NCBI RefSeq assembly: GCF_037042905.1
Contig: NC_087251.1
Location: 9,922,001 to 9,986,000 of the forward strand
Source of the DNA: Lytechinus pictus
Taxonomy: Eukaryota
Reading direction: 5' to 3'
Length of the DNA: 64,000 nt
Part shown: positions 10,372 to 47,665 of the stretch, piece after piece
Layout of the letters: each line of letters opens with the position of its first letter
Numbering within the stretch: position 1 is the stretch's first letter
Position numbers and translations under genes: made by a program
The notes under the pieces: model-generated
What the model was told of the DNA's origin: nothing
Databases searched by the model: none
What the model saw: the letters and a program-made list of their open reading frames with translations, nothing else

Positions 10372-10445
10372 TTCATCCTTCTCCTTAGTTCGGTATCTTC
10401 CAAGCTAGACTGCTATGAAGATACCTAACTAACGAGAAGGATGAA
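10372..10445. other. Compact stem-loop (34-bp stem, 6-nt loop)
   Basis: TTCATCCTTCTCCTTAGTTCGGTATCTTCCAAGC-tagact-GCTATGAAGATACCTAACTAACGAGAAGGATGAA, 30/34 positions complementary. Confidence 0.85.
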
Positions 10446-10501
10446 GGACTTGAACTGGAAGCACGACTGCTGGGATCATCAGCATTCTTCCAGAATCTTG
10501 G
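10441..10501 (+). CDS. Putative upstream-most first coding exon (MKDLNWKHDCWDHQHSSRIL)
   Basis: ATG 10441, 20 open codons, then G|GTAAAG G|GTAAAG G|GTAAAA: three tandem donors (10502, 10508, 10514), all phase 1. Possible acceptor ctctttccAG at 10287-88. Confidence 0.35.
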
Positions 10502-11483
10502 GTAAAGGTAAAGGTAAAATTGCTTCATGAAAAAAAAAACATTACCAAAACTTGATTAGAATTAGATTTAGATAAAGGTAAGACTAAGAGCTCTGGGTAA
10601 GAAATCAAGTTTGGCCCTTTAGTTTTATATGACATAGCGTACCAATCAATTAGGTGCATGTGATAGCATAGACAGAATTCATTACTAATTTGACGACATT
10701 GGTCTACTATCGCCATGTAGAAGTAATTAAGGGGAGCCCCATTGTGTACTGTGCATGTTCATACTTTGTAGAGCAACCAATGATGCAGTGCATGTCTGAA
10801 GCTATTGGTCAATTATCAAATGCAAGAGATATGACAAGTTTGAAGTTGTTGTCACTATCAATATTGTCCTTCAGCTTGTGAAAAGACAACAATGTCACTA
10901 CAGGTATAGGCCTACATACATGTATATCTCCAACTTAGTTTTTATTGTGATGTTAAATGGGCTCCAGATAGATTTACACAGTTTGGCATAAAGTTGTTCG
11001 TAAGTTTGCTTGACTTTATGAATGATGGGAAACCACGGTTCTTGGGTGCCAATGTGCCATTACCAGATCAGATTTTCAGTCATTTCGGGGGTCATTTCCA
11101 TCATATCAGGTTGGTCTATCCAAATTCTTGTTAATAGCAATGGCTCATTTAAATGCAAAGTTAAACATTTGTCCAAATTTGATAAGAGTAAAGTCACCTA
11201 TAGCATTCTGTGATGTATTAGGGTATCAAAATATTGAGCATAAGAATCAAGGATCACCAGTTATGGACAGCAGCTGTATGAAATAGGTCATTTCTCAAAG
11301 CATATGATAAAATTTTTAATTTTAAGGTTTGAATACCAGTCTCAGTCTACACCTCTAATTCATGAAATATTAAGAATAATCTAATATTGAAAAATATTTC
11401 GAATATTGAAAAAAATCATGCTAGACTCTTGTTTATCTAATAATGAAGAGGTTGATGTAATACAGATATTCTATTGAGGCATA

Positions 11484-11863
11484 TACCCCTTTCATAAACC
11501 CAATTATGCGGCTAATAGCAGCATAATTTGGTCGTAAAATCGGAGGAGGACCAGAGTTATCCGCATTATTTTGATGCTGCAATTATCCGCATAATAGCAG
11601 CATCGGGACAAGATTTTGAGTTTATGAACGTATTTCCAAATAATGCGGATAATTGCCATGGTGCGGTCACAAGGTCACCCTTTTCCAACACAACCGCATC
11701 GGAGGGGGCGTGTCCAGTTGTCATGACGATTATCCGCCTTTTTCAGGACGGGCGCTCGTAAAAATAATGCGGATAATTTTCGGAGTTTGTGAACGCAATT
11801 TTTATTGAATTATCCGCATTACTATTAGGCGGCTAATTGGAGGATAGGTTTATGAAAGGGGTA
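11484..11863. mobile_element. MITE (380 bp), Harbinger- or mariner-type
   Basis: Perfect 17-bp TIR TACCCCTTTCATAAACC / GGTTTATGAAAGGGGTA, flanked by ATA on both sides (or TA, if the element starts at CCCC). CpG-rich interior with repeated ATTATCCGCA/TGCGGATAAT motifs. Confidence 0.88.
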
Positions 11864-13164
11864 ATAGATGAACTACCGGTATATATATTTTTTTCTGTGT
11901 ACCTGCACTGTTGCACTTGTGTTTGCTGGATACGGCCTTACACCTGTTAAAGTGATGGAAGTTGTGCAGTCTTTCAGGACAGGGGTCATGATCTTGACTC
12001 AACCTTGCTCAAAATACCTAGTTGTATACCCAGGCATAATGTTTGCATTATAATTTGATGTTTACAATGTCCCAACCCAAAGATGACCTGGAGCTCACTT
12101 TATATTGTAACTACCATGGAAACCTTAATTTGATTGGCGGTTGAGCCATGCTTCCATTGTAGTTATTACTGTAATTGCAAAGTTACCTTAATAGTGAGTT
12201 GTATCATACATTGGAAATGCTTTTTAAAAAATGATCGCAAATTATGCATTTTGATATTGGAGAGAAGATGAGACTTAAGTAACATTACAGGTTAACTTTT
12301 TTGATCAAGTTATTTTGACAAAATATTATTCTTCAATATAGTTTAGTGTAAGACTGTTAACTATATTTTATACAGACTGTATTCAAAATTTACAAAATTG
12401 AAAGGTGTTCCGAATACAATAATTTAACTCTCTCTCTCTCTCTTAGCCTTTACCTTTCTCTTATCCCCCTCTCTCCTTGGTTATAGCCTACATGTACATG
12501 TAGATATTTGTTAAAATGAATTTCAGAGTTAATTTACATGGTACTTAAGACTTAATATTATTTTATAACATAACAATATATTTTAAAAGATTAACTCATT
12601 CCTTTATAAAACTGGTATTGCATTGTACACACAATCCATTTTCCATTTTACAGATAGGGCTATAATAATGTGACTATGGTTATATTATGAACAACTTTGA
12701 AATCATTATTTGCATGAATTTACTTTATCATAAAATAAAAAGCAAGAAGAAAAATAAGTAAACAAGCATGATCAACCATGCCTCTACTTATGTTTACAAA
12801 TAATGCTTGTCATAGAGGGTGATCACTTAACCTTTTTACCTCTTTCTGTGTGCCTCAAGTGACAAGAATCAATTTGTCAATAAACTGCTTGCTTTTAGCT
12901 CCTTTTAGGTTTTGGGGAAATGTCACTTCATGCCTAATTTAGATTTCTCCCATTTTCCCCACTTAAAAGGATTATGGAAGACAATGACATGACAGGTGAT
13001 TGTTACTTGGAGAGGAGTTTAAGGAAGGGAGCTAATAGTGTTTAGGAGGATCTACCTTGCAGATATTGACTTTCTTAAAGGCATTTATCAAAGTAAAAGG
13101 TAAGTTGTTTGTTACAGTACCTCTTTATATTTTACCAATAGCCTATAGGGGATTGTCACTAAAC

Positions 13165-13186
13165 ATGTATGCACGCACAACCACAG
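13165..13186 (+). CDS. Putative short alternative first coding exon (MYARTTT)
   Basis: aaacATG TAT GCA CGC ACA ACC ACA G|GTAAGT: favourable start context and a perfect consensus donor in phase 1. A second strong donor AAG|GTAAGT lies at 13100. Confidence 0.4.
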
Positions 13187-15533
13187 GTAAGTACTTCTGA
13201 TTTTTAAAAATTATACCATATTCCAGTTTTCCCATGTGCTAATTCCTGTACAAAATATAAACCAAGAAAGGCAGGGGAAAACACACTTTTTATTTGGTAT
13301 GACGATACTCCAACTAATGGTATAAATGCAAAATAACTATAATTTGTACTTTAGATTTCAGTATGACTGCTTTTTACAGTGAAATGTTTTATGTTGTTTA
13401 TCCATGCATATCATAATGATTGATAATTAAAAAAAAATCTGCTATTATATTTATTTACAATATGTTTCTTGTACAATTTCATAAATTGTGTTGACATAGA
13501 ATAGTAATTGTCCACCATAACCACTTTTTAAAACCAGAGTTAGATGATGAGAAGGACAGGGGGCTGCTGCTATTAGTAATTTAAATAAACAAAGACAACA
13601 AAGCTGCGATATATAGATTGATACATTCTGAGAAGCAGCAATTATTTTCTTCACAACTTCCTTAATGCAAACTCCTCATTATCGCTTTTGTTTTGCTTTG
13701 TAATCCCAAGGAGCTACAAGTGATTTATCAATAGCACACATTGCGTGATACTTTCACATACATTATGACAAGTACTTCATTTGATAAGGGCCAGGGAAGA
13801 AAGATTGCTAGTTTAGAACTACTCATGTAACAACTTCTTGGGTACAAATGTCATATTCTCAAGCAGAAGAAGCTCTAGTGATGAGAATTAAGCAAAAGTT
13901 CTAGCTTTCAACTAAGAAGTATATATTCATAACTTTTAGTCACTGGATAGTGGATACCATTAAAAAAAACCTGCCATTTGTTTCATACATAATTTACATT
14001 TTTTCCATACACAGCTATTTTTGTATTCTATTGCATATACTTTGCAATGTATAGGCTGTCATCCTAAATATTGTTTTGAATCATCCTGAGTAAATATAGT
14101 ATTTCATGGTGTGTTTGAACCATCTTCCATCTATATAGGGAAGTAATGATGTCATGTAGAGAATGTTTTTACTGGAATTAAACTGAATTCCCTCTGTTCT
14201 CGCCACATCCTTTTGATGCCAGCGAAGATGGAGATCAATTTCAACGTTTTAATACTAGATGTCCTTCATCAGAGTTTACTATTTCCCTAGGCGGAAACTC
14301 TGCGGAGGACCTGGGCTATTTTATGACATTCACATTGACGTCATACTCAATGACAGAGCCAAAGAAATCCAAATAAATCATGGATTAATGTAATGCAAAA
14401 CTAAAGTTCATTGGTATTATTAGCATTTTACCTGTCCTTGTTTCGCATAATGTTTCAGGAAATTTTTGTTGATCATGGATGACATAGATGTTAGTAACAT
14501 AGTGTAGGCCTTGTTAATGAATGTTTTTTCAACTCCAGAAACAGGATTTTCAAAGACACCCAGTTTAAACCTTTGTTGCATTTACTCATTTTTTATTGGT
14601 TGTGAAAAATAAGATGTCTTTCTGAAAAACAGTGTTTCAAGGGCCATTTTGGAGATCAACAGCGGCTAAAAGTTGATCAATCACAACGGAGATTGCAAAC
14701 ATCATTCTTTAGGCCTCTTCTAAATCGGATGTGTATTGCATATATTCATAGTCAAACTTTAATACTGCATTGTCAGGCAATAGGTGGTGGATGGGCTTTA
14801 AAAAGAAGGGAAAAAATTGTGATTGAGTGCTATCCCCAAGTGATTGAGTAGTATGTTTGTGTTTTGACATTTGGGATTCTCTTATTCTACATGTAGCCCA
14901 AGAAAGCACCCTATGATATGCTACCTGAATAACTGAGACAAATTTATATTTTGTGTTTGGGCCTTGTACATGTAACTTATGATACAGATCCCTCAAAATC
15001 ATCTTGAATAAATTTGATGAAAGAAATAGCATATATATGTAATGGATATCATGCCCATTTTAATACTTCAGTTTCTCTTGTGGAATTGTATTAGAATTAT
15101 TTCTAATTTAAAGTTAATCCCCCCTGTTCACCATGAGAGCATGAAGCTTATTTTAGGTAGATTTGGGTCATTATACATTATTAATAGCTATTAAACTTCT
15201 ATTTATTCTTTTCTTTCATGGTTTATTTTCATCTATTTCCTCAGTCTCTACAATCTTCAGTAATCTGCTTAAGTGTGAAAGCAAAGTTAACAGATTAGCA
15301 AGATAAGAAATTGGATTTGAGGAGAGATAATCAGCTTCAATGAAATAGGGGTTTTTGTTGCACGAAATTGTTTTCTTTTTTCAAGGATATTATGAGGAAT
15401 ACAAAGCCACTGTTTGGATTCTTGTATTTATTCTCAAGTGGACATTATCACTGATCTTATTACCTTTGATTTAAGAAATTTATACAAATTAAGAAAGAAG
15501 AAAAGCAATGCCTGTCTTTGTATCAAACTGAGT

Positions 15534-15835
15534 TTAAAGGACAAGTCCAGTTGATTTGAATAAAAAGAGAAAAATCCAACAAGTATAATGCTGAAAATTT
15601 CATCAAATCGGATGTAAAATAAGAAAGTACATGTAATGACATTTTTAAGTTTTGCTTAATTTTACCGGTCTGTATGCAAATGAGGGAACTGATGATATCA
15701 CTCACTCACTCGCTATTTCCTTTGTATTTTAATATGAAATATTCAAATTTTCTCCTCATTGCCCTCTGAATCAAAGTTTTATTCCTCCCTGAAGATGGTT
15801 CAGTCAAGTTTATCCTTATTGTCAAATCTGTATCA
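15534..15835. mobile_element. Truncated older TTAAAGG-type (Kolobok-like) MITE
   Basis: Starts TTAAAGGACAAGTCCA and carries GAAAATTTCATCAAATCGGATGTAAAATAAGAAAG. Similar decayed motifs occur at ~3232-3810, ~3820-4330 and ~45300-45504 (right end GGACTTTCCCTTTAA). Confidence 0.6.
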
Positions 15836-17470
15836 AAGAATAAAAATTTTACAAGAAAAATGAATTACTATTCAAATGCAATTTGATTCCAAAAGTCATA
15901 ATTTGTGAATTTTAGAATACCATATTTCATTTTATACCTGTAGCCTGGGTAACATACTTGCCCTTACATTGTGCAACAGATAGATTAAAAAGAGATAGAA
16001 AAAAGTAAATAAGATGTCAGACAAGACTTTGTTGATCTGTAAGAAGCCTGTATAATGTGTGGTTTCACCCAAGTCTATTGTTCCTAAATAGGTCTATTTG
16101 ATTGATCATTTGAAGCAGACCAGTACGAACAAACAGGCTTCTAAATCTTGCATTCCATCCTAACCTCAATCAATAACTTCAACTTTATTTTTGGTCAGTG
16201 TTTGCAATCTCATCATCATAATCTGCATAGGAATTCAGCCCCATCAATATGCAGAAACTTTTAAAGTGAGTTTGTCTGCGTACTAGTACATGTATGTATA
16301 TGCTTTCTTTTCCAAGCTTTCAAGTTGAAAATCATTGTAGAATTCATATTGTGTTTTATTTAATGATAATAGCAGCAGTTCTTATTTAGAAGTTTCATCT
16401 TCAAAACAACATTAGCGTCATAGCATGAGTGTTGGTGATTTTTTGTTTTACATGTTTTACAAGAAAATAAAAAGAGGTTCTATTGAGTGATAAGCGAAAA
16501 AGCCACCACTTTAGCCAAAGCCTTGTTATCCTCTTGTAATCCCATTATAATGGTGGGACCAAAGTTGTGGTGATATTGATTTAATAAGGACAGGAAATGT
16601 TATTGATGTAATGTTTTTATGTAAAGTTGATGGTATTCTATTAGCCCAGAATAATGGAAAATATGATGAACTGGTTGTAAAGAAAACAAACCCTGGACAA
16701 TATAAATAGCAGGTCCTTTAAATGGCCCCATATAGTTCCAAACCATAAGCAGCTCATAGCTGTGCTGGGTCAATACCCGATAGAGCCAACTTTCTGGAGT
16801 GCATGAGTGGCCTTGAGAATCTTGTAACACCATTACAATAGGATGCTATTGTTATTGGTAGAGGTAAATACCCCTCTCCCAGCAGACGACTCTGAATACT
16901 CTCCACTCACTCTCATGTGCAGTGGCATACTCCCTGAACCCTAGGATTTTGAACAATAGGAGACTGCACACACAGCCTTGGTGTGCTCAGTGGTAGAGAT
17001 CGTGATGCAGGTTGTTTCCCACAGCTTCTGTTCCGATTAGATCTGGTGTAGCAGCGCAGTGTTCGCCTTGGAGCTGTCATTAGTAGCTTTCAGCACTCAC
17101 CGTGCAGCGGCCTACATACACGTACCTCATTTTCTCAAGCTTTAATTGCTATACACATCTGTGGAATCATTCAACAAAGGATGGCAAGGCAGACCTGTGT
17201 AATTTACTTCCAATTCTTGTAATTCCATCACCCAAAATTAGATGCTGAAGTGATTTTGGATTAAAACTGCAGTAATGCTGAGAGTGTGTACATATGACCC
17301 CTCGGAAGTGCTCATGGAATCTTTCATTTGGAATACTCCAAGCATCTAAATGTTTTCTATTCTTCATTTGATTTGGTAATTAAGAAATATTCAGGTCAGT
17401 ATAATTAATGATATTTATGAAATATTTGTAGTAATACATGCACAGCATGTATGTACATTGTTATTTCTCT

Positions 17471-17666
17471 ACATTTTAATAGATGAAATGTACAATATAT
17501 AATGGATGAACATATGTGTGTATTGTAGATTCCTTAAACTTCAAATAAATCATTCAGCTTCACATAAAATATGAACATTTCATCCTCTAATTTGAAGTTT
17601 AAGGAAATCTACAATACACACATATGTTCATCCATTAAATATTGTACATTTCGTCTAGTAAAATGT
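17471..17666. repeat. ~76-bp near-perfect inverted repeat with 43-nt spacer
   Basis: 17471-17546 is the reverse complement of 17590-17666 with about 4 differences. Confidence 0.9.
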
Positions 17667-20600
17667 TTCATTTTTTGAAACATTAATATTATGGATGCAA
17701 AATACCAGTTGTCAAGTTAGACTATTATCAAGGTAAAGTATGGTTGGATTACATTCATTAGAGGCATGGAGTGATACAATTACTCAAGCAAAAGCTTGAG
17801 CATTTATAACCAATGTTATTTTGAAGAGACGTTAAATGTAGTCAGTGATTTGATATGTACTGTCGAAGAATGTTGTATTGATGTTATTTTTCTTTTGGTA
17901 TTTATTGGCAATTTACCTGTAATAATTTGCAGTGTGAATTCCAATTAAGAATGACATTTATGAGGACTCCAAGATTTCAGTGCAATCTCTCAAACACTTC
18001 CTCTTCCTGAGGTGAAAAAATGACAGTTCTTGTTATTTGATCCACCTCCATCAGGGATTAAATAAATCCAAGGACACCTAAGGTCATGGCTGCGGATGCT
18101 CTGTTGACAGGCTACAGTGCCCTTTCATTGGCTTTCAATGTACCCTTTTGTATTTTTCCTGTTTGTGATAAAGTGCCCATTTAAAAGTGGCATTACTTTT
18201 TAAATGTATAAAAATAAGGCCTGCACCTTTGCAGTTTATGTCAAAAATATCCATGCTTAAATGCATTTTTAACTGGACTTTCATGTTCAGCTATTACATT
18301 GAATTAGTTACGACTATAATCAAGTTTGTTGATCAGGGAAATGTATGTATTGCCAATAAATTGTTATTTCTGTTTATCCTGTTTTCGATTCAGCAGCTTG
18401 CCAAGCATAAAGGTTTGATATTGTCACAGTCATTGCTAATTGAGAGGGTACTCTCTCAAAGGCACAGAGCATACTGTACGTAATCTATTTTCAAATATAA
18501 GTTTTGGCTCATTTCTTGCTCAATAGCCTTTGGTGATATTCAGTGACCTGTTTGCTATGACAAATATGCAGTTCCAGTTTAATGGCTTGACCACATTTAT
18601 TTCAAGAAAAAAATCTTTACTCATTCAAACCATTATTTTACCATTGATTATACCCTTTAAGTCGACATGGGCTTCTAACTACAGATCCCCGATCAATATG
18701 AATATAAACAGATCAATTGAAATGTTTTTCAATTGCATGCCTGATACTTTGCATATTTAAATCATTGTTCTGTTGTGTAGGTTTGGAGAAAATTTGAATG
18801 CATTTTTGACTATAGAATAGAAACTATTTTGTAATATCTGTTGTATGGGAATCCTTACACTATTACAGATAGGAGTAATGGTTTCCCTGTCTCCATAACA
18901 TCATATACTTTCAGATCAATTGTTCAGTGTCCTTCATTGATATTACTTTTCTAGCATTCTTGGAGAATAGATACAGACCTTGCAGCTATTATCAGTAATT
19001 ATTGATGATTAGTTTATCTTCATTGATTGTTACTTAGGATTCTTTGAAGCAGGAAATTAAGCCCCCTTATGTCCTGAAATGATAGATTTAACTAGTCTTT
19101 CTCAATGTCCAGGTACTTGTTATAAATTTACAATTGCCGCTGTAGGGAAAATCCTTGCTCAATTATTTTCATTTTCGTTAGCTTAGTCCAGTGAGATGTT
19201 TTCTTTATCTATTTTTTGATTGAAACTGAAGATTGTTTAAAGCAAATACATGTAGATCTCCAATAGAGAGGTGTTATTGCTAGTCAGACACCGAGTGAAA
19301 CCAAAATCATGTTACATCAAATATAAATACCAAAATTTTTTCATACCTGTACAAGGAAAATATGGTAGTGTTAGTTTTACATTTTTCTTTTGAAACAGAT
19401 TGTCTATTGCAGCATACTGCATATACATAATGATCTTTCATTTTTTTTAATGCACATGCATGGAGCGACATGCAGCATGCATAAAAAATGTCTTTGTGCT
19501 CAGGCACGTGTGTGCATCTGATCATTGAACAATGAGGTATAATTCACCCCCTGATGACGGTTTGGCAGGCGCTTCAGATCAACTCCAGCATGGAACTGCA
19601 TCGCCTGTATACCCTGCTGCTGTCGCTCAGGGAGATGATTTCCGCCCGAGAATCAAAACCGGTCTCCATTGTTATGCCGTAAAATGATGGTATTGGTACA
19701 GTGAGTCATATCCGTGGAATCCCCCATGTATTCAATTATTTACCTTGCTCTGTATGAATGAGGAGTTGTGATGAGAAATATTAGGAATAATGAGAGCACA
19801 AAGGGTATTCATTTCATCCATGGTAAAGCCATTGCCCTCTATCATACGCTTTTCAATTTCCACACCTAATTGATTCATTTATATTTGATCAGATTTCTGG
19901 GCTTGATGTAAAGCCATTCAGGCAATAGCTTTTTATATCATCCATCACATTTTCAAACTTCATTTTTTCCCCACTTGTACATGTTTCCAATAATGCCAAA
20001 TATTCACATGCAATAAAATGCAATCAATTCAATGAATTCATGATTTATTAAGCTACAGTATCATTGGCAGAAATATCTAATTCTCATTTAGAAGTCATTG
20101 TCCAGATAATGATATGTTTTCCCTCATTAGAGCTCTACTGCCTGTTTAGGAAATGAGGAGAGAGAAATGCTATTGAATATTAAACAAACAATGGTTTAAT
20201 GGAAAATTAGTAATTTGATATTGAACGATCATAACTAATGGATCTAAAAACCAATCAAATGTGACAGAATTGTGATGAGTTGAGCAAAAAGAAAGAAAAG
20301 AAGAGAAAGAGAGAGGTAGATGGGGTGGGAGGCTATGGTTTGTGGACTCTGTACCTCAATGCATTACACTACAGTGATATTCTCTGGTTAATGAATAACC
20401 AGACTGAAATATCTCTGTAGATGCTACTGATGGCCATACTTGCAAGTTGCTTTGTTTTTATTTGATTCAAATGCAAATATATGTATCCTGAACTGATATA
20501 CGATGTGTTGAAGTCAATTCAAATCTTTATACAGAACAGGACTCTTTCTCATTCAGAATATTTACCCGATGCTGTAGCGTTCAAATCTGGTGTCTGTCTA

Positions 20601-21183
20601 CATATATCAGGGATATTCATTCATCATTGCTATGAATTGAATTCTGCAATATTTGAATTTGTTATGGATTGGTGAAAACGCTTCTCTGATACTGTTGATT
20701 AAGATATCCAATGGTTTATCACAGCAAATCTGTGAAATGTGTCATGTGGATTAATCAATTTGGTGGATATGCCTAAACCAGTTCCTTTGTAATGGATTAG
20801 GGAAGACTGTATGTGTTGTATGTGTGAGTATGGATTAATACTTGGATTAAACCATGGCCCGTCTGCATCCATTTTCACAGAACTGGGGAGGCCTCCAGTT
20901 ACAAGGTCAGTTTTAGTAGCACAGTCTTATTCATTGATTGTATAGATTTCATTTTGTGTTTGTCACCTTTGCTGTTGTGTTAGTAGTGATCTGGTTGTAA
21001 GCAGCTTGTGAACATTCCCTTTTCGCATAGGTGTTTATCCATGTAGGCTTAACAGATTATATCTGTCCCTCTGTCCCAGATGTTATAAATATAAATCTGC
21101 ATGTACATGCAGGCCTAGATGTTTTGATGGAGAGACACTCAAAGAGACTGAAAGAGATTATTTAATTTTGTGCTTTAGTACTG

Positions 21184-21337
21184 GTGGGTGTTTCATAAAG
21201 CTGTTCGTAAAGTTACGCACAACTGGAACATGTTCTTAGGTCATAAATCAATTATACAGGGATATCATTTAGCACAAGAAAGGATCACCAGTCGTGTATA
21301 AAGTCATTCGTATCTTATGAACAGCTTTAACACCCAC
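21184..21337. mobile_element. Short PIF/Harbinger-type MITE
   Basis: TIR GTGGGTGTTTCATAAAGCTGTTCGTAA / TTATGAACAGCTTT-AACACCCAC with a small deletion on the right. 3-bp CTG duplication (21181-83, 21338-40). Related decayed pieces near 10985-11040 and 11240-11285. Confidence 0.75.
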
Positions 21338-21634
21338 CTGGTAGCATAATTCTCCTCATTGAAGTATCAAAGAAGCCAGAATATTTCTTCCATGAGCAAT
21401 AAAATTGATGATATTTCACAAGTACAAAGACAACTGAAGCATTAATTTTTTTGATAAATGTTATTTCAGTTAAAAATTTAAATCTTCTATAAACCATGCA
21501 AACAACTGTAAACATGTGCTTATGATCCTGGTTTTCATCAATTTTGATCGAAATTTTATTCATTATTTATAAAAAGAAGTGCAATCCAGCAACTACTGGA
21601 GTGGATCTCCTATTGTAGGTTTATCCTTTTTAGA

Positions 21635-21665
21635 GGGGGGGGGGGGGGGGTGGGGGGGGGGGGGT
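21635..21665. repeat. Poly-G tract (G-quadruplex-capable)
   Basis: About 30 G interrupted by one T. Confidence 0.85.
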
Positions 21666-23777
21666 AGGTCATTTGAAGGTTGGTTTCTCATAGATATAGA
21701 ATAAATTAAGTTATTATTCACCTAATCACCTGCATGGGTCAGTTCCTCCTATCAAGTTGAAATTAGGTGAAGTCATTAGCTAAATTAGGTGTGCAGTCAG
21801 ACATGATTCCCTTACTCTACTAGGTCTATTTAAATCCAGAAATCTTTGTAACAAGTTAGATATTATTTTGCAACCATCCTCCATGAGAAATTTCACAGTG
21901 ATACTATATCATTGGTCAAATTTAAAGAAAAAAAGGCATTATGAGCAAATAATTTGAGAAATAACCAGGTTGACATGTAATACAAAGGTAAATTGATAGC
22001 ATGGTGGTAGGCCTAATTACTACGGAAACAACCAAGGAGTATTTTGGATGAAATGCTTTGAATAGGTTACACACAGCAATGCTTTGGATATTTTCTTCTT
22101 ATGAGAGAAAATATTACAAATACAATATTATTTTTAAAGTACATCTCATATGTTTTTGTGATTTTTTTTCAGGTATCAGAATGAGGATTTTTTTAAAATA
22201 CAAATATTAACCAATGACTTTAGCTGTATGAATTATGTCTTAAGAAAATATGGACTATTGAAAGGACAAGACATAACCATTCATTGGTTTACACCCAACC
22301 TTAAATTATTTACTTGTAAGATAAAGTGGGTTACTAGTATGTGAAGTATACATGTTATGTTTTTTAAATGACTACATCCTTATTTCATGTATAGATGTAA
22401 TAAAATAATATTTTCCTTCAATTGCAGAAATCAGGTTTTGGAATCATGCTAAATTTGAATACAAGCCTGTAACAGCTGTGAGGTTTATTCAGTCCACAGT
22501 TCATGTTGACATGAGGGTGGTATGACTGATGGTTATATTGATTCATAACATATTCCGCTATTAGAGCCAGTTGAAGAGTGCGATGATCTATCGCTCAATA
22601 CACCCTCTGGAGGGAATCCTCCTCATCAATACTGAATATTGATAGTTCCACGCTGAATCTTCCATCGTAATAACTTCCACCGTGGCATGCTTCTCGCCTG
22701 CGGGCAAGATGCAGCTTTACGCATTAAGATGCGTTTGAATAGCGTTGTGTGTCCATGTGGAGTCATGTGAGGGTTATGCACAATATTGTGTATATATATA
22801 TATATATATAAATATATCTCTCTCTACAGTTTTTCAGTCATTTGCTTTCTAGAGTAGATGTAGAAATGTTGCATGTACATGTTTGAATCACATCAGTAGG
22901 ACTTTCTCTATGACTAATTGTCTGCTGCGATGTATTCAAACGGCATATTTTTGAGAATTGAAAAGAAGTAAAATGGGATTCATCATGCTTCATTAAAGAT
23001 GTGATGGAATATTGTGCATATTGGATTGATGGACTGAGTCATCTTGTGTTTCTTTGCTTTCCGCATCATTGCTCATTTTCTCTGTCATTCTCTCTCTCTT
23101 GTTCATCTGCAGAGAGTAGGTGCATGTCACCAATCTACATGTAGATGTTTGTATGAAAGTTTATTTCTTTATACCAGATTTTTACACCTTACTGGAACAA
23201 AAACTGACCTTTTAATAATCAATTAGATATGAGAACATGTATGTAGCCAATGGAAGTTTACTGCAGTCAACATATTAAGCGTCTTCATGTTGGATGACCT
23301 GATTATTTCAAACTTGGTTCTTCTTGACTGATGAATACAGTTTGCTCGATGATTAAATTGACAGACTGAAATACCTTTAGACAGCTGGCTGGGATACCTC
23401 ATCCATTAGACTCCCTCTGTAGTTTCATATCGAGTTTGACTTTATTACAACAATGAATACATGTTTTAAAATGATACTCTGGTGATTTCATAATTAAGAC
23501 ATGATTTTTATCTTCTAAAATTTCAAATGTTTATGAACCAGTGTTTGATGATTTGCTGTTTACAATCTGCATAGTGGTGTTTGTCCTCACCTTTGATTTC
23601 ACGTTGTTCGTGTAATCTCATCACACAAACCATATGATTAAAGGTCCCTTGACATTGTCCAAATAGAAAACTTTGGGAGTGGAACTGTAGAAAGTTGAAA
23701 TGAACCTGAAATCAAGTGGAACTTGGGATGATAAGTGAGGTCTTTGGCTCCCTGTGGGGACTCCTGACTCACACTCT

Positions 23778-24078
23778 ATGACATTTCTGCCTCCTTGCAC
23801 ACCCAGTAGTCACTTCTCGTTTCCTGGAACCCCCGGCACCATGCTCCTTATTATCAAGTCAATGAAAGTCTTAGGGAGACCGCTGTCGTTGGGCAGTCGT
23901 AGGAAGAAGACATCCCATGTGTGTGTGGGGGAGGGGTGCAGCATCCACCTGTCACAGGTGCTGTGTAAGGATGACATCATAAAGAAGTGCAGTGATGCTC
24001 GAGAAAGACTTGTTGAAATGAATTTAATAAACTCAGCCTACATGTTTAACAGCTGTCCAGACTTGCCATCACCCATTG
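23778..24078 (+). CDS. Putative alternative first coding exon of the RhoGEF gene
   Basis: In-frame TGA at 23736, ATGs at 23778 and 23841 (ggcaccATG), ~100 open codons in a locally GC-richer island. Ends ATT G|GTGAGT, a strong phase-1 donor that joins AT at 46617 to give GAT-ATG in frame. Encodes RPLSLGS. Confidence 0.62.
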
Positions 24079-25684
24079 GTGAGTTTCTTTAAAGTCATGG
24101 GAGAAATTTAAACTTGTTTTTGTGAGTGGTTCTTATTTACGAGGTTATCATTTCATCAAAAGGAATACATAATTATTCAAGCATCAGAAGCCTAATTTGT
24201 AGTTTCACACTCTTCATTGTTTGTGAAATCTATGTATTTTAAAATGAGCATTTCATTATAATTTAATGAATTTCAAAGTTGTAGCTATCAACATAACAAT
24301 TACTTTTCATTCAAAGTACCTGTTCAGAGTCAGAACATATTTTCATGATATTGTATATGACAAAGGTGTATATAATCCTGAAATAAAGCAAAATGGAATC
24401 CTCCATCCATCTGCAGTCAATTGTTTGACTTTCACAAATACATTGCAAAAGTAAACAGAAACAGTGACACACCCAGTAGATAAGAAATGATTGGGGAGCT
24501 GCAACACCAAATGTCCTGATTAATGTAAAACAGGATAGACATAGCTCAAGTAAGGAGTTTTGATATGGCAATTTACTAAATTTGCTGAATGAATTTAGGT
24601 CATATTCTCAGAGAGATAAAGCAGCTTTACATCAAATAAGCAAGAAGCTACTTTAGAATTATAACAGCCAGACAGTCTAAAGTGTGTATTATGTGCTCTT
24701 GGACTAGATTTGGTTCATATGTAATCTGCCCCCTCCCACCCCATCTACGCAATCGAGAGCGGGTAGGATAAAGTACGCCCTCGCTCTCTGATCCAAGCGC
24801 CAACCTTGGCCTAGAGTGAGATAGCCTAATACTCTGATGAAATGTTCTTACCTTTCTCCCTTCCTTAGACCTTGTTTACATATCACTGCAGCTATTTTGA
24901 GAATGTTCCATCTTCCCTGTATACAGCCCTCATAAAATCATGTTTACCAGTCATGGTACTAATAAATATTGTTAAATTGTTGAAGAAGAGCGTGATAGTG
25001 TTCTATTCCTTCTCTATTAATCATCTTGTAATTACATTGTGCATTTTTTCCCCACTAAAACACTGCATTCATCCTCATCAATATGCATGAAAACTTGCAG
25101 AATAAGGTGCAGTTTATATATTTGCAATTAATAAGGCTATAGCTCTTGTCTGTTTCCCTTTTTTATGTGAGGCAACCACAGACATATCATGGTCCTATTA
25201 CGAAATAGGCCCATGGACATATTAACCTGAAGAAGAAAGAATCTTGTGCATCTAGGTGATGTCTCTGGTGCTTTGCCAGACTGTTTATACCTTGTCTCTC
25301 ATGTGACGAGTTCATCTGCCATTAAGGTTCAAGGTTAAGCAGCCATGTGTTAAAAGCAATGTTTTATTTTGGCGAACTTTGTCTGTCCTTTTTTCTTTTT
25401 TTGTTTCAGTGTGCAGGATCATTCTGTATTTTGTGCTTTCTTTCCCCAGTTGTGAATTCCTGTCTCCTTCTTTCAAGTCACTGCTTTTTTTTGTTACATG
25501 TATGTTGTTCATATCCAATTTCTACCCTACATGTAGGTTCTGTTGTTGACATGTAATTTATGGATCGGAATAGAAAGTCTTGCTAATTTCCTTTCAATAT
25601 TGTGCCTGTCTTCTTTGTACTCATGTATGTACCGTAAACAGCATAAAGCTAATTAATGATCTGAAGTCAAAGGTCATATATATA

Positions 25685-26505
25685 CAGTGCGTCCCATAAA
25701 AAACGAAACCGAGATTTATCAATGATTTATCATAACTTAATCACAAATACAATAGACAAATGACCTACCATTGTAAAGCTTAGAATCTCCTCTTTCATCT
25801 GAAATTACTTAAATTATTTCTCATTCACGCATGAGTGAGCAAAAACAATTTGAAGAGGGGATACCAAAAAGTCATTTGGCGGGCTGTATCTGGGTTTCAA
25901 AAAGAAAACCACATTTCTAAAAAGTTCAATATCTGCTCTTTAATTTGATACCTCAATTACAGAAACTGGTCAAGAAATAAGAAAAGTTCTGGTTATTTGA
26001 AATAAGGCTTGAATTTCAATAATTTCATAAAATGAAGAGGTTCTACAGGCTAGCTTTCAAACTCACTCGACACTCCGTTTTGTTGACGATCAGCCAAGCA
26101 TGAAGTCTTTTGTTAACCATGCGATAGCTTCTGTGGGAAACCGGTGAAAACACGTTTATTTGATGAAATTATGGAAATACAAGCATTGTTTCGAGGGAAC
26201 GTAACTTTTTTACTTCTTGACCATTTTTTGTGATTAAGGTATCAAATTAAAGAGCAGATATTGAACTTTTTAGGCATGTGATTTTCTTTTTAAAATTCAG
26301 ATACCCCCTGCCAAATGAGTTTTTGGTATCCTTTCTTCAAAATGTTTTTGCTCACTCATGCGTGAATGAGGAATAATCTAAGTAATATCAGATGAAAGAG
26401 GAGATTCTAAGCTTTACATTGGTAGGTAATTTGTCTATTGTACTTGTGATTAAGTTATGATAAATCATCGCTAAATCTCGGTTTCGTTTTTTCTGGGACG
26501 CACTG
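25685..26505. mobile_element. Tc1/mariner-type foldback MITE with ~350-bp inverted arms
   Basis: Ends CAGTGCGTCCCA...TGGGACGCACTG with TA on both sides. Arms ~25685-26035 and ~26155-26505 align as reverse complements along their length. Confidence 0.92.
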
Positions 26506-29205
26506 TATATAGCAAAAAAAAAGAGGTGATGGTTAGTCACAATAACTTATAGATCCAATATTAGATAAAATCAGAATAAAAAATTATTCTGGAATATATA
26601 AAAGTTCAGTGTGCATTGTGCAGTATCATATTTTACAGCATTCAGTTGAGAAATCATTTGATTTTTCTTTGTGTTTTTCAACTTTTTGATAGTATAGGTT
26701 TTTATGATAAATAAAAAACCCCACTGAGGTAATGATTGACTTATGACACTGTGAACCTCAATTCATTAGGTAATCACTGGTTACCATCCCCTTCAAAGTG
26801 TGATGTACATCCTCATTATAATATCATTAATAAGACCCAAGCCTTTCAGTCTGGTGAATTTTCTCAATTAACCCAATTAACCAATTCTTAATGAGTCTGA
26901 TTGCATGTTTGTTTGTTTTTAGAAGGAAATGATTGGACTTACAATTTCCTTGTGATAATGGAGCTGTCTACTCATCTTGATAAGAATGCACTTGAAGAGT
27001 CCTAAATTCCTTTATTAACCCAAAGTTCATGCAGTCACTGAAAAGTCTACTAAGTCATACCATGGTTTTTTTTAATATAAAGATTGTCTTTCTACAAGAA
27101 CACTGAAACAAGAACCAGCCTTGATGACTTTTTGAATTTTGATGATTCCATCTGCAAAATATGAAAAAAAAATATATAAAACCACAAAGTAATTGTTTTC
27201 TCTCTGCAGACCTATAGATATACTGGAGAGTTTTATATTATTCATCAATTTTCACATCCTTTTAATTAGTAAGGCCCATTTCAGTTTGATGGATTATACT
27301 CAATTACATGTATCTATTCTTAATTAGTCTAATATATGATGTTTGGTGTAGAAGGAAATAAAGGAAGTAAAGGAAGACATTCAATGAGTCAATTCTTGAA
27401 CAGAGTTCACTCACTCTTTTCAAAAGTCACATGTTATTTTCTCCAACTTAAAATCACTTTCTGTGTGATTCTGGATAGAAGAGAATTAGGATTGTTCAAT
27501 ACACTATGAACACAGGACTTGGGGCTTTAAAAATTTAATTGAAAAAAAAAGAGTCAAAGATAGTAATGAAAACAATAACAAGATCGGGAAGTGAAATGTG
27601 CGCACACATCTGGTCTGGTGCATCCTTTATGGTGAGCAAAAACAATATTGATGGCTGATGCATATCTGAATACACAAAAAATATCACGCAATGACTTGTC
27701 TGTGTTATAAGGTAGAAGAATATTGGTTTGATGATATAATTATTATTAGCAATTCAAAGGAAATATGCTCACAGATTATTTGTAGAATTATGGTATGACT
27801 TTAAGAAAGGTTGTACATTTGAAAGGTGATAATTTTCTCACTTTTCTCGCATATACACGTAGCTTGACGACAGGATCAGGCATTCATTGTCATCGCCTTG
27901 CTGGCAGAAGGGCATTAAGACTTGTGCCAATTCTTGTTTGTGAGGTACTCTCACATGCAATGTACATTTCGTATAGTTCATGCTAGAGCCAACTCCGTTC
28001 TCCCTGCCAGGCAATAATGTTGTTTAACTCTAAGGAGAGTCAGATACATGTTGGTGTTACCAAATGTCCTTTGTGTGAGTATAGACTTATGCCCTTATGA
28101 CTATGAGATGAAATCTTAATGGAATTTATCTATTTCATTGATGGTTCTCACAACAAGGCTTTGTGATACATGTATATTTCTCATTATATAATATTGATAT
28201 TTGCAAAGATAATACATTATCACAATGATCATCTGTAGTTCTCTACCTTTCCAATCACAAAATTGTGGTTTTATCATAAATATCAAATAGGATTTCCCAT
28301 GAATTCCATTGCAATGACGTTGATTGCCTGAATGGAATATTTGTTTCTTAAAATAGATTGATTAAAACTATATCTATTCGAGGAAAAACACTGTCTCGGC
28401 CTGGTCTGTTTCTCAATCAGACAGGAATCATGAGGATGTGATAGAGTTCCTGTATTGCCCTGGCCTACGCTCTAAACAAACTTATGTTTTCATTCATAAT
28501 GACTCTCATTCCTCTACCTCAGACATATAAATGTAGACATAGCGGTATCATTACTCATAGCAGAGGATTTGTAGACTGGGGTGATTGGCATTGCAGGGCA
28601 ATACTCAGATCAAAATCTGAAATAGGATTTGTTTTCCTGATCTGTGCAGATAAACGTTAATTACATAGGATACATCACTGTCAGAAACAAGGCTAGTTTC
28701 AACTGTCATATACCTTCTATGTTTTCAGGAAAGGCGAGCTATAAAGAATATTAATGATGAGGTATACACCACAAAGTACATGTAAGTTTCATATGCTTTA
28801 CTAATAATGAAATTAATTGAACATTTAAAGTAATTTAGATAACATTTAGTTGATTACATCTTACCATTCTTTAAAAAAGTACAAATTAATCTTCTTTACA
28901 AAATACTATCTGCTGAAAATGGAACTATATAGGAAGCTTACCATTAAACTTAGAAAACAAAAATGGGAGCAATGTATAGTCTATTGGGACAATTCAAGTT
29001 TTAACAAATCCTGATCCTTGATACATAAGTTGTGATAGCAGTTTAGAAATAAGGATCATTATTTGGCACAAATCTGACAACATAACAGCATGTTGTAAAT
29101 GCTGCATGAGATTTGTTCTGGATATTCATTTAATTTCTTTTCTCTTGATGATGGAAATATATTTCAATCCATGCCCCAGTGAGGTTGCACTCATTGAGAT
29201 CTATG

Positions 29206-32290: not shown

Positions 32291-33250
32291 TTTTTGTCTC
32301 ACCTGCATAGCAGAGTGAGACTATAGGCGCCGCTTTTCCGACGGCGACGGCGGCGGCGGCGGCGTCAACACCAAATCTTAACCTGAGGTTAAGTTTTTGA
32401 AATGACAGCATAACTTAGAAAGTATATGGACCTAGTTCATGAAACTTGGCCATAAGGTTAATCAAGTATTACTGAACATCCTGCCTGAGTTTCATGTCAC
32501 ATGACCAAGGTTAAAGGTCATTTAGGGTCAATGAACTTAGACCATGTTGGGGGAATCAACATCAAAATCTTAACCTAAGGTTAAGTTTTTGAAATGTCAT
32601 CATAACTTAGAAAATATATGGACCTAGTTCATGAAACTTATACATAAGGTTAATCAAGTATCACTAAACATCCTGCATGAGTTTCACGTCACATGACCAA
32701 GGTCAAAGGTCATTTAGGGTCAATGAACTTTGGCCGAATTGGGGGTATCTGTTGAATTACCATCATAACTTTGAAAGTTTATGGATCTGATTCATGAAAC
32801 TTGGACATAATAGTAATCAAGTATTACTGAACATCCTGTGCAAGTTTCAGGTCACATGATCAAGGTCAAAGGTCATTTAGGGTCAATGAACTTTGGCCAA
32901 ATTGGGGTATTTGTTGAATTACAGCCATAAATTTGAAAGTGTGTTGGTCTAGTTCATAAAACTTGGACATAAGAGTAATCAAGTATCACTGAACATCCTG
33001 TGCGAGTTTCAGGTCACATGATCAAGGTCAAAGGTCATGTAAGGTCAAAGAACTTTGGCCACGTTGGGGGTATTTGTTGAATTGCCATCATATCTCTATA
33101 AGTGTATTGGTCTAATTCATAAAACGTGGAAATAAGAGTAACCAAGTATCACTAAACATCTTGTGCGAGTTATAGTAGTTTTCAAAATCAGCACTGCTGC
33201 TATATTGAATCGCGTGATGCAGGTGAGACGGCCAGAGGCATTCCACTTGT
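32291..33250 (+). mobile_element. Non-autonomous Helentron/DINE-1-like element (HINE), copy 2
   Basis: TTTTT then GTCTCACCTGCAT (32296-32308) / ATGCAGGTGAGAC (33217-33229). 5' stem-loop GTCTCAC..GTGAGAC, (GGC)n, about five tandem units (~192 and ~163 bp), short 3' hairpin GCCAGAGGC, ends CCACTTGT|T. No TSD. Confidence 0.85.
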
Positions 33251-36790: not shown

Positions 36791-36935
36791 ATGGTCCAGA
36801 AAAAAATTTCTGGAGAGAAAATGGTGGATTTTGTGCGTGGTTGCAGTACCAGAGATGTCATTAAAATGGATTCTATAAATTTGGATAATAATCTGGATTC
36901 ACTCCTGGATCTAGACGACTTCAGTTTCATGAGTG
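36791..36935 (+). CDS. Putative alternative first coding exon of the RhoGEF gene
   Basis: ATG 36791 gives MVQKKISGEKMVDFVRGCSTRDVIKMDSINLDNNLDSLLDLDDFSFMS, then G|GTATGT, a phase-1 donor in frame with exon 46617. Confidence 0.5.
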
Positions 36936-39385: not shown

Positions 39386-39612
39386 CAGTGGCATACGCAG
39401 GATTTTTTTTAAACGGGGGGAGGTTTCAAGCTGAATGAAATGTGGACAACGCCCCCCCGCAAAAAAAAAAAAGTCTTTACCACAATTTGTAGGTCGTTTC
39501 ACTTTCATACCCAAGAAACATTTGACAAGCAACAGAATTTTAGGGGGGGGAATTTGAATTCTTGGGGGGGGGGGGGTTGAACACCTGTAACCACCCCCTG
39601 TGTACACCACTG
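39386..39612. mobile_element. hAT-type MITE (227 bp)
   Basis: Perfect 8-bp TSD TCTGATAC (39378-85 and 39613-20). TIR CAGTGGCATACGCAGG / CCTGTGTACACCACTG. Confidence 0.9.
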
Positions 39613-42600: not shown

Positions 42601-45600
42601 AAACCACAAGTCAAGGGATGGATAGTAGTAACAAACAATGATCTAAATTGTCATATTTATTCTCCCTTCCTTGTCAACATGTCCTACCACAGTGGATCAA
42701 TTGTCTACCAATACTCTGATGTAGGATGGGCCTCTACATTCTCTTTTATTTTGAAAACCACAGAAATATGTGGACTTTAGAAACTCATTCTTTTGGAAGT
42801 AATTGTTTATTTGTATTTATTATTTACACTTTAGAGCTGGAAGGTAATTCTTTTCATCAAAATGAGGGCAAGGCAACTGAAGCTGACGTGTTTGGCAAGC
42901 TCAGATTAATGATATAATGTACATGTACATGTAGAAAAGAACATGTACAATTTTGGGAGTGCCTTAAAGTGAGAAACTTACAGCACAAATCAGTCCGAAG
43001 AATTAAATCTCTTCATTAGATATATGTACTGTAGATATATATCTGTCAGACTGTGCCACCCTATGCCAAGATATGGATCTGAATCCATTTTATAAACATT
43101 AAACGTTGGGTGTAAAGTCCATTCTTCAGTTTGGTTGATTGTGAAGTGAATTGATGATATTGATCTTGTCTGTCATGTGGTTTAATTCTACATTTGTCAA
43201 TTTGTCTGGAACACTTGTATTAGAGTGCAATTATTCATGATGGTAGATTGATAATCTTCTAATAGTCCCAAGTTTCCAAGCAATGAAATCATTAAAAAGC
43301 AAATTTCCTCTTAATAGAATGCAGAGTGAATTTATTTATTCCTAGTTTCCCACAGTCCCTACATGTAGAGCAGGCATTCATTGTGAGTTGTATGATATTA
43401 ATCAGTTATCAGGCCTGTTTGTTTTTTTTATCATTGTGTTATGATATGCAATCGATCTGTAGAAAAAAGATGATTCTTAGTATTGGTATTGTGTGTGTTT
43501 TTTTATTAATATTTTGTAATTTGTTTAAGTAATTGTATTGATGCAAATTAACTTCTGTTCTACCATATGCTCTACATAAACCAATCCATAAAGCTTTAAG
43601 ACCTGTGGCTGTCAAGTAATTTAAGCATAAAAAAATCCTGTTGGTACAGAAAAAGTTGTATAGGTCAAATGAACAGCCTCCAAATCATAATAATTTGTTC
43701 TACAAAGAGTTCAATGCAGAGCATTAAAAATTATTGATCACTGGAAAAATATACATCAATCACTAGAATTTTAATTCTGCTTTATTTTATCCATTGCCTT
43801 GTGCCATTAACCATGAAACACCTGACCAGGAAATATAATCAGCCGTGTTCATTTCCACTTAACTAATCAAATTACTTCACTTTGAGTTGATGGTTGTTAC
43901 ATTGGATTAATCTATTAATTGACATTTGGTTAGGATCCATTACTATTTCACAGTGTAATTAAAAACAAGGGAATGTCAGTTGGTGGTTTTGTAGTACTAT
44001 TAAACGTGGCTATCGTGTAAACAAGGAAAACAAATGCAAATGACAGATTAGTGGTTTAATCATCAACCTGTGTTTTGCCAAATTATACCATCAACAAATG
44101 TGATTTTTGGAAGCCTGGACACCCTCCATCACATCTATGATATGCACAAAATATTTTGATTGTTTGTTTGTGGCCATTGGTTTGGTGTATGAGAACCAAT
44201 ATAAAATATAATTGGAATACAAAATGTATATTGTGTTTGTAATGAGATCTTGCAGAGTTGTTTGATATTGGATTGTGAGTTGGATGGTGAAATCTTTTTA
44301 TGAAAATGAGTTTTTCAATGCAATCTTCATAACCAAGATTTTATAATTCAATTTTGATCCTCTGTATTTGCAGAAATTTTGCAAAGTTATAATTTTCTTG
44401 CCGATTAAACCAAACAATCCTGTTAAAGTGGATTGAATTTTGGGGAGTGGTTTCTCACCAGACATAGGCTTTTTTCATGCAGTTGTTAATGTAGCATTTA
44501 TAGTGCATTTATTTATTTTCATGGATAGATCAAGAGAAATGCAAAATGAATTTAAAAAAAATCCAAATGTGTCTTCAAAATTATCGCTACATATTTCACT
44601 TGTACAATTCCCGATGGATTTTATATCAAAAATTGATTACCAGTGTTTCAGTCATCAGTCCCATATATAGTTGATGATGTTGTGCTGGAATAGTTCCCTT
44701 TGCATGTAATGTTTATATGAAGGGCCTGACATCAATCAGGTCGAGCTTTGCATCTGGCTTCATGCAACTGCTGCATAAATATACAATGTTATCTGACAGT
44801 GATAACAAGTTCTTATACTGTCTTTGTTCAATGTCCTGAATATTGAAGGCAATACAATAAAGTCAGGAATAAAGCTACCGAAGGCAGCGGCCTGTTGGGG
44901 TGAATGTGAACACTGAATAGAATCAGAATAAAGGTCCACTTATCTTCACTATTTTTTTTTCAATCATCATCATAGCCAATGCAAGTGCGATTATTTACTT
45001 CTAATGGTAGATAAATGTTATTTGATTATTGTAATTTCCATCGTATATTTATAGGTGTATTTTTTTCAGAATGTAAAACATTGTAGTGACTCTTGACTCA
45101 TTCAGTCCACTGTAAACATGATCTATTATATAGGCATGGAATGTAAACCTCAGTATTTGCATTGATCAATCAAAACATCAAATAAAATTAATGTAATAAT
45201 AACACTTAATTTCTACATATGGTTCTCAGTATCACACATAATAAGTTTAGCCTTTAGGTCTAATTATTAATTGCCTTGTTATACATTACACTATCAGTCA
45301 CACATTTCATACACCTTTTCATGATGAAAATTCAAAGAAAATGACAATTCAATTATTTTTTGTATGTGAGATATGGAAGAACAACTTTCATGTGACATTA
45401 CAAAAGTTGAATTAAATATCATAACTCTTTAAAGCTTGACGGTCATTTTTGTCAGACATTCATTAATATGTTTGTCTGCCTTTCAGGGTGGACTTTCCCT
45501 TTAAACTTGAATACATTATTTTTTCAAAGTTTTTGTTGGCTTGATTTTGAATAAATCCTGATAAGTTTACTGCTTCTGGTGTTTTTTATCTGTTTTGTCA

Positions 45601-46616
45601 GGTCTCATTACTTCCTATTGCACTGGTTTGCAATAAGCCAGATAATTGAAATCAGTTGTATTGATATCCATTTCCTGACTAGAATGAACAAGAGATCTCA
45701 ATGTAATCCTATGTCCGCTGGGTTGTAAATATAGTCATTGAATAGCCTTCTACTATTCATGAATGACCTCTATTGACAAGCCCATTGACCTTCTGTCTGT
45801 CTGGACCATTTGCTGACCAACTGACCAGAAACCCAAACATTGGTCATTTGTGAAGTGGAAAGAGAAACATCAGAAGCATTGATATTATTGTGAACCATTA
45901 GGGAATAGTGGAAGTAGAGATGGCAAAGATATCTGAGAAGGAGTGCTAATTACATTAGGTGAGGTTGTAAAGGAAATTGAATCATTTAAACTAACATTAT
46001 AGTTGGGTGGTCCTAATGTGTGCATTTTAGTCGAATGTGTCAATTTTAGCACTTGTGAAGGAAAATAAATGAATGGAAATACCTGCTGTATTTTCCCTAC
46101 AATACCTTCATGTGTGTATGACCATTGTGCGTGGGGACAACATACTTTGATCACACTTCTGAAGGATTTTATAGAAGTGAATCATTTATGCCAAATGTAT
46201 ACTACCATTTTAAGTTATTGCTATTTACATGATTGTGTATATGCCAATGTTTTGTCAAGTTGAATAGTGATGAAATATAAATATAAACGGCTGCACACCA
46301 TCTACGAATAAAGATGAAGTTGAAAGTGACAGAATCATCTGTTGTTTCCGTATATCAATCTATCTTCACATGGTAGACATTCTGTGGCCATTACTGTGAT
46401 CTACCAATGAGAGAAAGTGAGTCACTAATTAAGTGATAATTTTCAGGAAGTATTCAAACTTCACTGAGTCTGTCAAACTATATTTCACCTTCTACTTGCT
46501 TTCAACATAATGTGAATCATGTTCAAGAAGGTGACGATTTCTGATCGATACCTTCATTTGCAAATTATGTTTGACCAGCTGGATAATTATATCTTTCATA
46601 TTTTGAAAATCCACAG

Positions 46617-47665
46617 ATATGTCGATGGACATTGCGCCTACCCTCATCACATTGTACGACTCGGTAGCAGCAAATGGCCAAGTAGATGAACATCCCCATC
46701 AAGGAGAGGAGGAGCGTTTGCAGCCGCAGCAGGATTGTGAGTCACATGACCAGGAAGAGCCAATTGCATTTGTGCCGAGCGCAACTACCCTGGCTGCGGT
46801 GCGCTTGGGAGACTCAGAAGGAAGTTTGATTGCAGTGGATGATGTCACGCAAGAAAACAAGGGAAAATGTAGCAAAGGAGAAAGTGATAACAGGGGTAGG
46901 GAAGGTTGTGAGAGCTCAAATGCTGCAGCAGAAGAGCAGAGACTAAACAACCACCCTGCCAATCATAGTTACTTACATGCTGCAGGAGGAAGGGTGCCAT
47001 TGGTAGACAGTGCCGCAGTAGATTCATACCTTGATAGAACTACCCAGGAGAAACAAGATAACGCCCAAAATGGCGGCGGCGATAGCAATAGTGTTTCAAG
47101 TGCAAATAAAGAACATTTGACTTCATGTGGGAAGGTGAACCTGCATGGAGCTCGTGATAACAACTTCAACGTAGAACATTCCAGTAGGATGGTTAGTAGC
47201 GACAATCCAGGAGAAAACATGGCAATAGATGTAGACTTCAACAGCAATAGCAATAATGACTGCAGGCCACGGGCCCACAGTGCGGACCTGCTGTCAGACA
47301 GCAGAAGATGGAGTCAGCGGCAGCGTCCAGCAAGTGCGGAGATTACGACCACGGAGTATCTTGAGAATGGTGCTTGCTCACCGGTTCTTCAGCAGAAGCA
47401 TGAAGAGGTGCAGCAGAGCCATGCCCCTATCAGGCAGAACTCATCCCGCATCAACCCTCCAATCATTGTCACCACAACTCCTATGACAAATGAAGCCATG
47501 TCACCACCTACATCACCACCAACATCACCTCCGATGAGTCCTACCTTCCAGAGACCTAAACCAAGTATATTCAGCATGCAAGGAAGGACCTACCTGGACA
47601 GGATAGTAGATGAAATCATTGATACAGAGAGGAGTTATGTTGGAGATCTTGGAGACATTATAAAG
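46617..47665 (+). CDS. PLEKHG1: PLEKHG1/2/3-like Dbl-family RhoGEF, large coding exon (disordered N-terminus plus start of DH domain)
   Basis: Acceptor ...ccacAG at 46615-46616, then AT ATG (ATG at 46619). Open frame with raised GC content. It ends in YLDRIVDEIIDTERSYVGDLGDIIK, the first DH helix (E-x-x-x-T-E-R-x-Y-V-x-D-L), followed by a phase-0 donor GTAAGC at 47666. The symbol denotes the family; the vertebrate paralogue cannot be resolved. Confidence 0.92.

Follow-up and report, generated by a model that had tools for sequence, protein, structure and literature searches.

The long 5' region of a RhoGEF gene in the sea urchin Lytechinus pictus raises the question of how many first exons feed its constant exon, and which stretches of DNA these exons occupy. 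The window analysed here is a stretch of 64,000 nucleotides, and it contains the 5' part of what is, judged from the encoded protein, a predicted Rho-activating DH-PH RhoGEF gene. A sequence-only reading of this DNA had proposed that four ATG-initiated open reading frames (ORFs) act as alternative first exons and attach different N-termini to a constant GEF. The general idea of several N-termini on one GEF is supported by RefSeq isoforms and by contig ends, but the list of exons proved largely wrong. Specifically, we consider it very probable that at least three, likely four, upstream exons are each spliced to acceptor 46617, each probably with a promoter of its own. The exons and candidates are listed in the table.

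Coordinates in the window of the upstream exons and candidates, the constant exon and the DH-domain exons
Feature	Position	Strand	Remarks
Candidate of 20 codons from the sequence-only reading	10441..10501	+	weakest donor (0.63)
Candidate of 7 codons from the sequence-only reading	13165..13186	+	strongest donor of the region, CAG/GTAAGT
Likely non-coding 5' exon	16756..17394	+	donor CAG/GTCAGT; translation would begin at ATG 46619; 5' edge approximate
Alternative 5' exon	20406..20905	+	coding 20854-20905 (17 codons + G); donor AAG/GTCAGT, phase 1; 5' edge approximate
Likely unannotated 5' coding exon	23778..24078	+	donor TTG/GTGAGT; 100 codons, 79 from ATG 23841
Alternative 5' coding exon	36791..36935	+	donor GTG/GTATGT, phase 1; 48 codons
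Constant exon	46617..47665	+	acceptor tccacag/ATATG, ATG 46619; a long part outside any domain precedes the start of the DH domain
DH-domain exon	50945..51045	+	
DH-domain exon	58550..58619	+	
DH-domain exon	61729..61926	+	gene runs on past the window end

The identity of the gene was established from a spliced model and from protein comparisons. The model 36791-36935 + 46617-47665 + 50945-51045 + 58550-58619 + 61729-61926 agrees with the L. pictus RefSeq protein P0007 at all 521 of its residues. Like every RefSeq model, P0007 is a prediction, and it may have been made from the very assembly that contains the window. With the constant exon as query, three protein clusters were obtained among 7139 candidates (27 members compared: 9, 14 and 4), with identities to this exon of 98% in Lytechinus variegatus, 86% in Strongylocentrotus purpuratus and 62% in Diadema setosum. 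The DH domain (RhoGEF, PF00621) scores 150 bits in P0007 and 147 bits in the orthologue P0004 at a cut-off of 27.6, and the region of exon 61729 in the window reaches 60 bits to the same profile. In P0004, the DH domain occupies residues 370-543 and is directly followed by a PH domain (PF22697; residues 570-666, 41.5 bits at a cut-off of 27.7), which is encoded beyond the window; long low-complexity regions flank the pair. By its DH and PH content, the protein is a Dbl-family RhoGEF, with predicted nucleotide exchange on a Rho GTPase.

Within the Dbl family, the gene likely belongs to the PLEKHG1/2/3 subfamily, a putative assignment on which the names in the databases disagree: older RefSeq entries are called PLEKHG3-like and newer ones RhoGEF 25-like, and Atlas clusters and PDB matches name other Dbl proteins first. 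The fly member of the PLEKHG1/2/3 group is Drosophila GEFmeso. One S. purpuratus PLEKHG1 is included in a published supplement, under an accession not tied to this gene (PMC5499878).

Several further features of the gene were noted. The L. pictus RefSeq models (P0007, P0008 and P0010) split it in two, with P0007 ending after the DH domain and P0008 beginning inside the PH domain; the corresponding protein of the relatives is a single chain of 1660-1700 residues. An 8-residue segment near position 745, encoded beyond the window, is present or absent in the isoform pairs P0004/P0005 and P0012/P0013, and is, as far as predicted proteins tell, a small splice variant conserved in L. variegatus and S. 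purpuratus. The introns between the DH-domain exons contain two near-identical copies of an interspersed element of about 600 nt, seen by eye at ~51300-51900 and 55730-56320.

The four proposed ORFs have the properties ascribed to them. The segments 10441-10501, 13165-13186, 23778-24078 and 36791-36935 start with ATG, measure 61, 22, 301 and 145 nt, end in phase 1 at G/GT, and all translate in frame into the Asp-Met-Ser(-Met-Asp) of exon 46617. The accompanying rule, according to which an upstream exon must be coding and end in phase 1, is true for coding exons but incomplete, as ATG 46619 permits a non-coding first exon. Isoforms with a start of this non-coding type are found in the RefSeq annotation of L. 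variegatus and S. purpuratus.

The same reading had cautioned that short phase-matched ORFs can arise by chance, and controls on the reverse strand, in the other phases and in simulated sequence bore this out. Donors in the region 1-46616 were scored with a generic donor matrix, using the weakest candidate donor as threshold. On the plus strand, 58 of 218 such donors close a phase-1 ATG ORF, compared with 49 of 185 on the reverse strand; the numbers for phase 0 and phase 2 are 63 and 50. When the donor classes of the sequence-only reading itself are applied, 10 phase-1 ORF/donor pairs are obtained, and simulated sequence with the same classes yields a mean of 8.7 ORFs, with at least four in 59 of 60 runs. 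No excess of phase-1 ATG-to-donor ORFs over chance was therefore found in 1-46616 by the strand, phase and simulation controls. An ORF of at least 48 codons appeared in 17 of the 60 simulations and one of at least 100 codons in a single run; length singles out the 100-codon ORF alone. Taken by itself, a phase-matched ATG-to-donor ORF carries no weight, dozens being expected by chance in a 46-kb intron, and since chance yields as many of them, each exon requires evidence of its own.

For the exon at 36.8 kb, this evidence is provided by annotated N-termini. RefSeq models of four urchin species start in 36791-36935, and the exon corresponds to the N-terminus of isoforms X1/X2 in L. variegatus (97% identity), isoforms X1/X2 in S. 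purpuratus (81%) and the D. setosum protein (59%). Together with the identity to P0007, these N-termini give the segment good support as an alternative exon. The conserved start is likely ATG 36821, the methionine where the relatives begin, which leaves 38 codons. In the peptide from this ATG, acidic residues outnumber basic ones by 8 to 3. The DNNLDSLLDL motif of the exon does not vary among the four aligned sequences. A predicted complex between residues 1-60 and the DH-PH unit of P0004 scored 0.00 in two runs, which speaks neither for nor against binding.

Two better-supported exons, 20854-20905 and the one ending at 17394, had been missed by the sequence-only reading. The peptide encoded by 20854-20905 is identical in 17 of 17 residues to the start of L. 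variegatus isoform X3 (P0001) and in 14 of 17 to that of S. purpuratus isoform X3 (P0014). At the level of predicted proteins, two or more different 5' exons feed acceptor 46617: RefSeq isoforms of L. variegatus and S. purpuratus map to both 36821 and 20854 and run on into exon 46617. Isoforms that begin with MSMDIAP are found in three species, and the start of isoform X4 at ATG 46619 implies a non-coding upstream exon. In 16756-17394, none of the 10 ATGs is open to the donor, so this exon is likely non-coding and of the X4 type.

Sequencing runs add evidence for the ends of both exons. Four of 24 listed runs were aligned to 6001-26000 at a likeness of 88, a range that has acceptor 46617 and the 36.8 kb exon outside it; the run pieces described are among the 24 listed of 16321. 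Run X24 consists of raw RNA reads, with a depth of a few reads per exon, the contigs of runs X2 and X7 are guessed to be RNA, and run X15 consists of contigs of a kind not on record. Two sites mark the exact point where contigs stop or depart from the genome: 17394 (runs X15 and X2) and 20905 (run X15). Record 5 of run X15 spans 20406-20905 and carries 28 off-stretch letters beyond the donor. At 17394, record 2 of the same run (16756-17394) stops exactly at the donor, record 3 starts 30 letters back at 17365, and record 11 of run X2 (17109-17394) continues with 29 off-stretch letters. If contigs are assembled from 31-letter words and converge on one acceptor, an overhang should measure 30 letters less whatever suffix the exon end has in common with another; for the ends considered here this predicts 28 and 29. 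The overhangs thus lend indirect support to splicing of 17394 and 20905 to 46617, where the contigs probably continue. No junction letters into 46617 were found among the 24 of 2168 loose ends listed, all of them at repeats, and the 15 of 381 joints listed.

The candidate at 23.8 kb is a more delicate case. On balance, we favour 23778-24078 as a real 5' exon with a candidate junction to 46617; the long ORF and a frame conserved in one relative speak for it, but a second relative is frameshifted and the join to 46617 was not seen. The alternative is that only starts of the RefSeq type (36.8 kb, 20.9 kb and non-coding) are real. The block at 23.6-24.1 kb would then be separate from the GEF and owe its conservation to something else, for instance a role as enhancer, a transcript that is unspliced or independent, or descent from an exon now in decay. 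Only the 23.8 kb exon is at stake here; the remainder of the preferred explanation stands either way. Against this alternative stands the Logan protein P0028, which is 75% identical to the ORF. All four indels between the two keep the frame, Met1, Met22 and the Gly-Glu reading at the donor are retained, and identity falls after donor 24078, whereas a frameshift and a stop occur only upstream of the ATG. On the other side, P0029, the only relative besides P0028 among 1.84 billion representatives, has Ile in place of Met1 and a frameshift near 23991, and DNA similarity reaches about 120 nt upstream of the ATG of the ORF.

The transcript evidence at this site is likewise divided. The region is covered by contigs of runs X15 and X7. 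Record 6 of run X15 (23227-25215) crosses donor 24078 unbroken and P0028 is itself an unspliced read-through of it, both in keeping with a block that is not joined to the GEF; record 21 of run X7, on the contrary, stops at 24081, only 3 nt away from that donor. A spliced protein with the 23.8 kb ORF was not found, neither in the searches that returned only P0028 and P0029 nor among 57 short candidates, and an Atlas search with the ORF gave no usable match. This result would also favour the alternative. Against it counts that contigs drop rare variants. Taken together, we regard restriction to the RefSeq-type starts as a credible though somewhat doubtful account, and retain the 23.8 kb segment as a likely exon. 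The first 30 residues from ATG 23841 include 7 basic and 0 acidic ones.

Two intronic stretches, 17672-20285 and 23227-25684, are covered by single contigs of run X15 at a depth of 13-22, above that of the neighbouring exons; nascent RNA and a separate transcript are candidate readings. Inverted-repeat elements lie at 25679-26511 and 17471-17666, with arms of 306 nt and 68 nt that are 91% complementary. The match of record 7 of run X15 stops at 25684 with 855 letters left over, and the larger element (25679-26511) may be absent in the X15 haplotype.

In a second alternative, the upstream exons are not first exons but internal cassettes, used one at a time, and a single promoter farther upstream serves them all. 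This arrangement could account for acceptor-like sites upstream of five of the six candidate exons, a count made with no chance control, for the 13 unaligned letters at the 5' side of record 21 of run X7, and for the two accessions of L. variegatus isoform X4, which imply that a further 5' variant exists. Records 2 and 5 of run X15, however, extend over 500-640 nt, past the acceptor-like sites, and carry no off-stretch letters at their 5' ends, and no joint among the upstream exons is present in the 15 of 381 joints listed. A shared promoter appears improbable to us. For the preferred explanation, we infer an own promoter for each exon, mutual exclusion of the exons and a function of the resulting N-termini. 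Each RefSeq isoform carries one upstream exon.

CpG-rich patches at 0.5-1.5, 7-10, 11.5, 29.2 and 32 kb are candidate promoters, of which those at 1, 8, 11.5 and 32 kb were set aside because they fall on repeats or on depth of a repeat-like kind. An element built from tandem units of 160-190 nt occurs twice, at 929-1563 and 32293-33171.

The two remaining candidates of the sequence-only reading fared differently. The donor of the 13.2 kb candidate scores 8.98 and is surpassed by none in the region, the second-best being the donor at 13099 with 7.9. Apart from these two, AGGTAAGT occurs nowhere in 1-46616, whichever strand is read; they are separated by 87 nt, and such an AG/GTAAGT pair was reproduced in 0 of 60 simulations. 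The pair hints at a real exon with two donors, which is perhaps non-coding. The 7-codon ORF itself gains from this donor and its twin, but the depth in its bin is 0.03, 2.87, 0 and 0 in the four runs, near zero in three of them, and it has no matching N-terminus among the 27 cluster members.

The 10.4 kb candidate is unsupported as a first exon: it combines the weakest donor with an ATG inside a hairpin, repeat-like depth and the lack of a matching isoform, and the ORF likely arose by chance. Better-scoring donors are present at 10507 and 10513, 6 and 12 nt downstream of 10501. The hairpin, 10369-10448, is a near-perfect structure of 80 nt with 37-nt arms, a 6-nt loop and a z value of -8.7, and ATG 10441 sits in its 3' arm. 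Depth in the 10441 bin reaches 4141 in run X15, with 22-24 contigs at 10138-10142 and 93.5 at 10425. Rfam returned 0 matches in the window, hairpin included, and no second copy of the hairpin was found in the window; that the genome has further copies is suggested by the contig depth and by a variant with a 6-nt insertion. N-termini from the 10441, 13165 or 23778 ORF occur in 0 of the 27 cluster members. We thus consider it most improbable that each of the four ORFs of the sequence-only reading is a genuine first exon driven by a separate promoter: the shared frame, the supported 36.8 kb exon, the conservation of the 23.8 kb ORF in one relative and the twinned top donor at 13186 speak for it, but chance gives as many such ORFs, 10501 and 13186 have the weaknesses described, and the N-termini from 10441 and 13165 are absent from the cluster members.

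In the preferred explanation, separate promoters in the long 5' region would each transcribe a short exon whose donor joins acceptor 46617. Coding exons would have to end in phase 1, and non-coding ones would use ATG 46619. The 36.8 kb exon would add an acidic N-terminus of 39 residues and the 20.9 kb exon 18 residues. The non-coding 17.4 kb exon would add 0 residues, since ATG 46619 would then serve as the start of translation. If real, the 23.8 kb exon would contribute 80-101 basic, Cys-rich residues. Over 300 residues would separate all these differences from the DH domain. Promoter choice would likely act mainly on when and where the GEF is made, with the short extensions possibly tuning its location or stability. 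The N-terminus of a D. antillarum model (P0026) is a different one again and has no match in the window.

A bolder version of this mechanism can be formulated. Five or six promoters (13.1, 17.4, 20.9, 23.8 and 36.8 kb, perhaps more) might serve as a switchboard by which one GEF receives different, unrelated targeting tags, among them an unannotated, urchin-restricted basic, Cys-rich N-terminus of 80-100 residues, and the DNNLDSLLDL motif, present from Diadema to Lytechinus, might bind a partner or restrain the GEF. We consider this version unlikely; if true, the site of Rho signalling within the embryo cell would depend on promoter choice.

The arrangement can be compared with existing annotation and with known gene architectures. 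LOC121419177 of L. variegatus and LOC100891485 of S. purpuratus, each with isoforms X1-X4, are the same gene, annotated with three N-terminal types: the 36.8 kb exon, the 20.9 kb exon and the MSMDIAP start, the first two of which map to the window. For L. pictus (XP_054758953), the listed RefSeq proteins show only the 36.8 kb and MSMDIAP starts. No literature on the isoforms of this gene was found, locus identifiers included, in searches whose coverage had most subscription papers and bioRxiv supplements outside it. The meaning beyond annotation is limited, as alternative first exons are common and the three start types are known for two species. What is added is a corrected exon list for L. 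pictus, a 100-codon exon that is likely real but missing from the annotation, and a short conserved motif open to testing in a tractable embryo.

Clustered protocadherin and UGT1 arrays consist of variable exons that are paralogous copies, each encoding a folded specificity domain. The locus resembles them in that several 5' exons feed one constant region. A search with blastn for copies among the six exon regions, run against the window, gave self matches only, and no Pfam domain reached the cut-off in the ORFs of 100, 48 and 20 residues; the other exons give 17, 7 or 0 residues. Since the exons are not copies of each other and have no Pfam domain, and are moreover short and about four in number, an array of the protocadherin or UGT1 type was rejected. 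The locus is instead a case of ordinary alternative first-exon use that is largely in RefSeq already, with the 100-codon exon as its likely unannotated part. According to one review, 50% of human genes have more than one promoter (PMC13082882). In such multi-promoter genes, unrelated short 5' exons, coding or not, are joined to one constant exon, and the gene described here is the same in kind.
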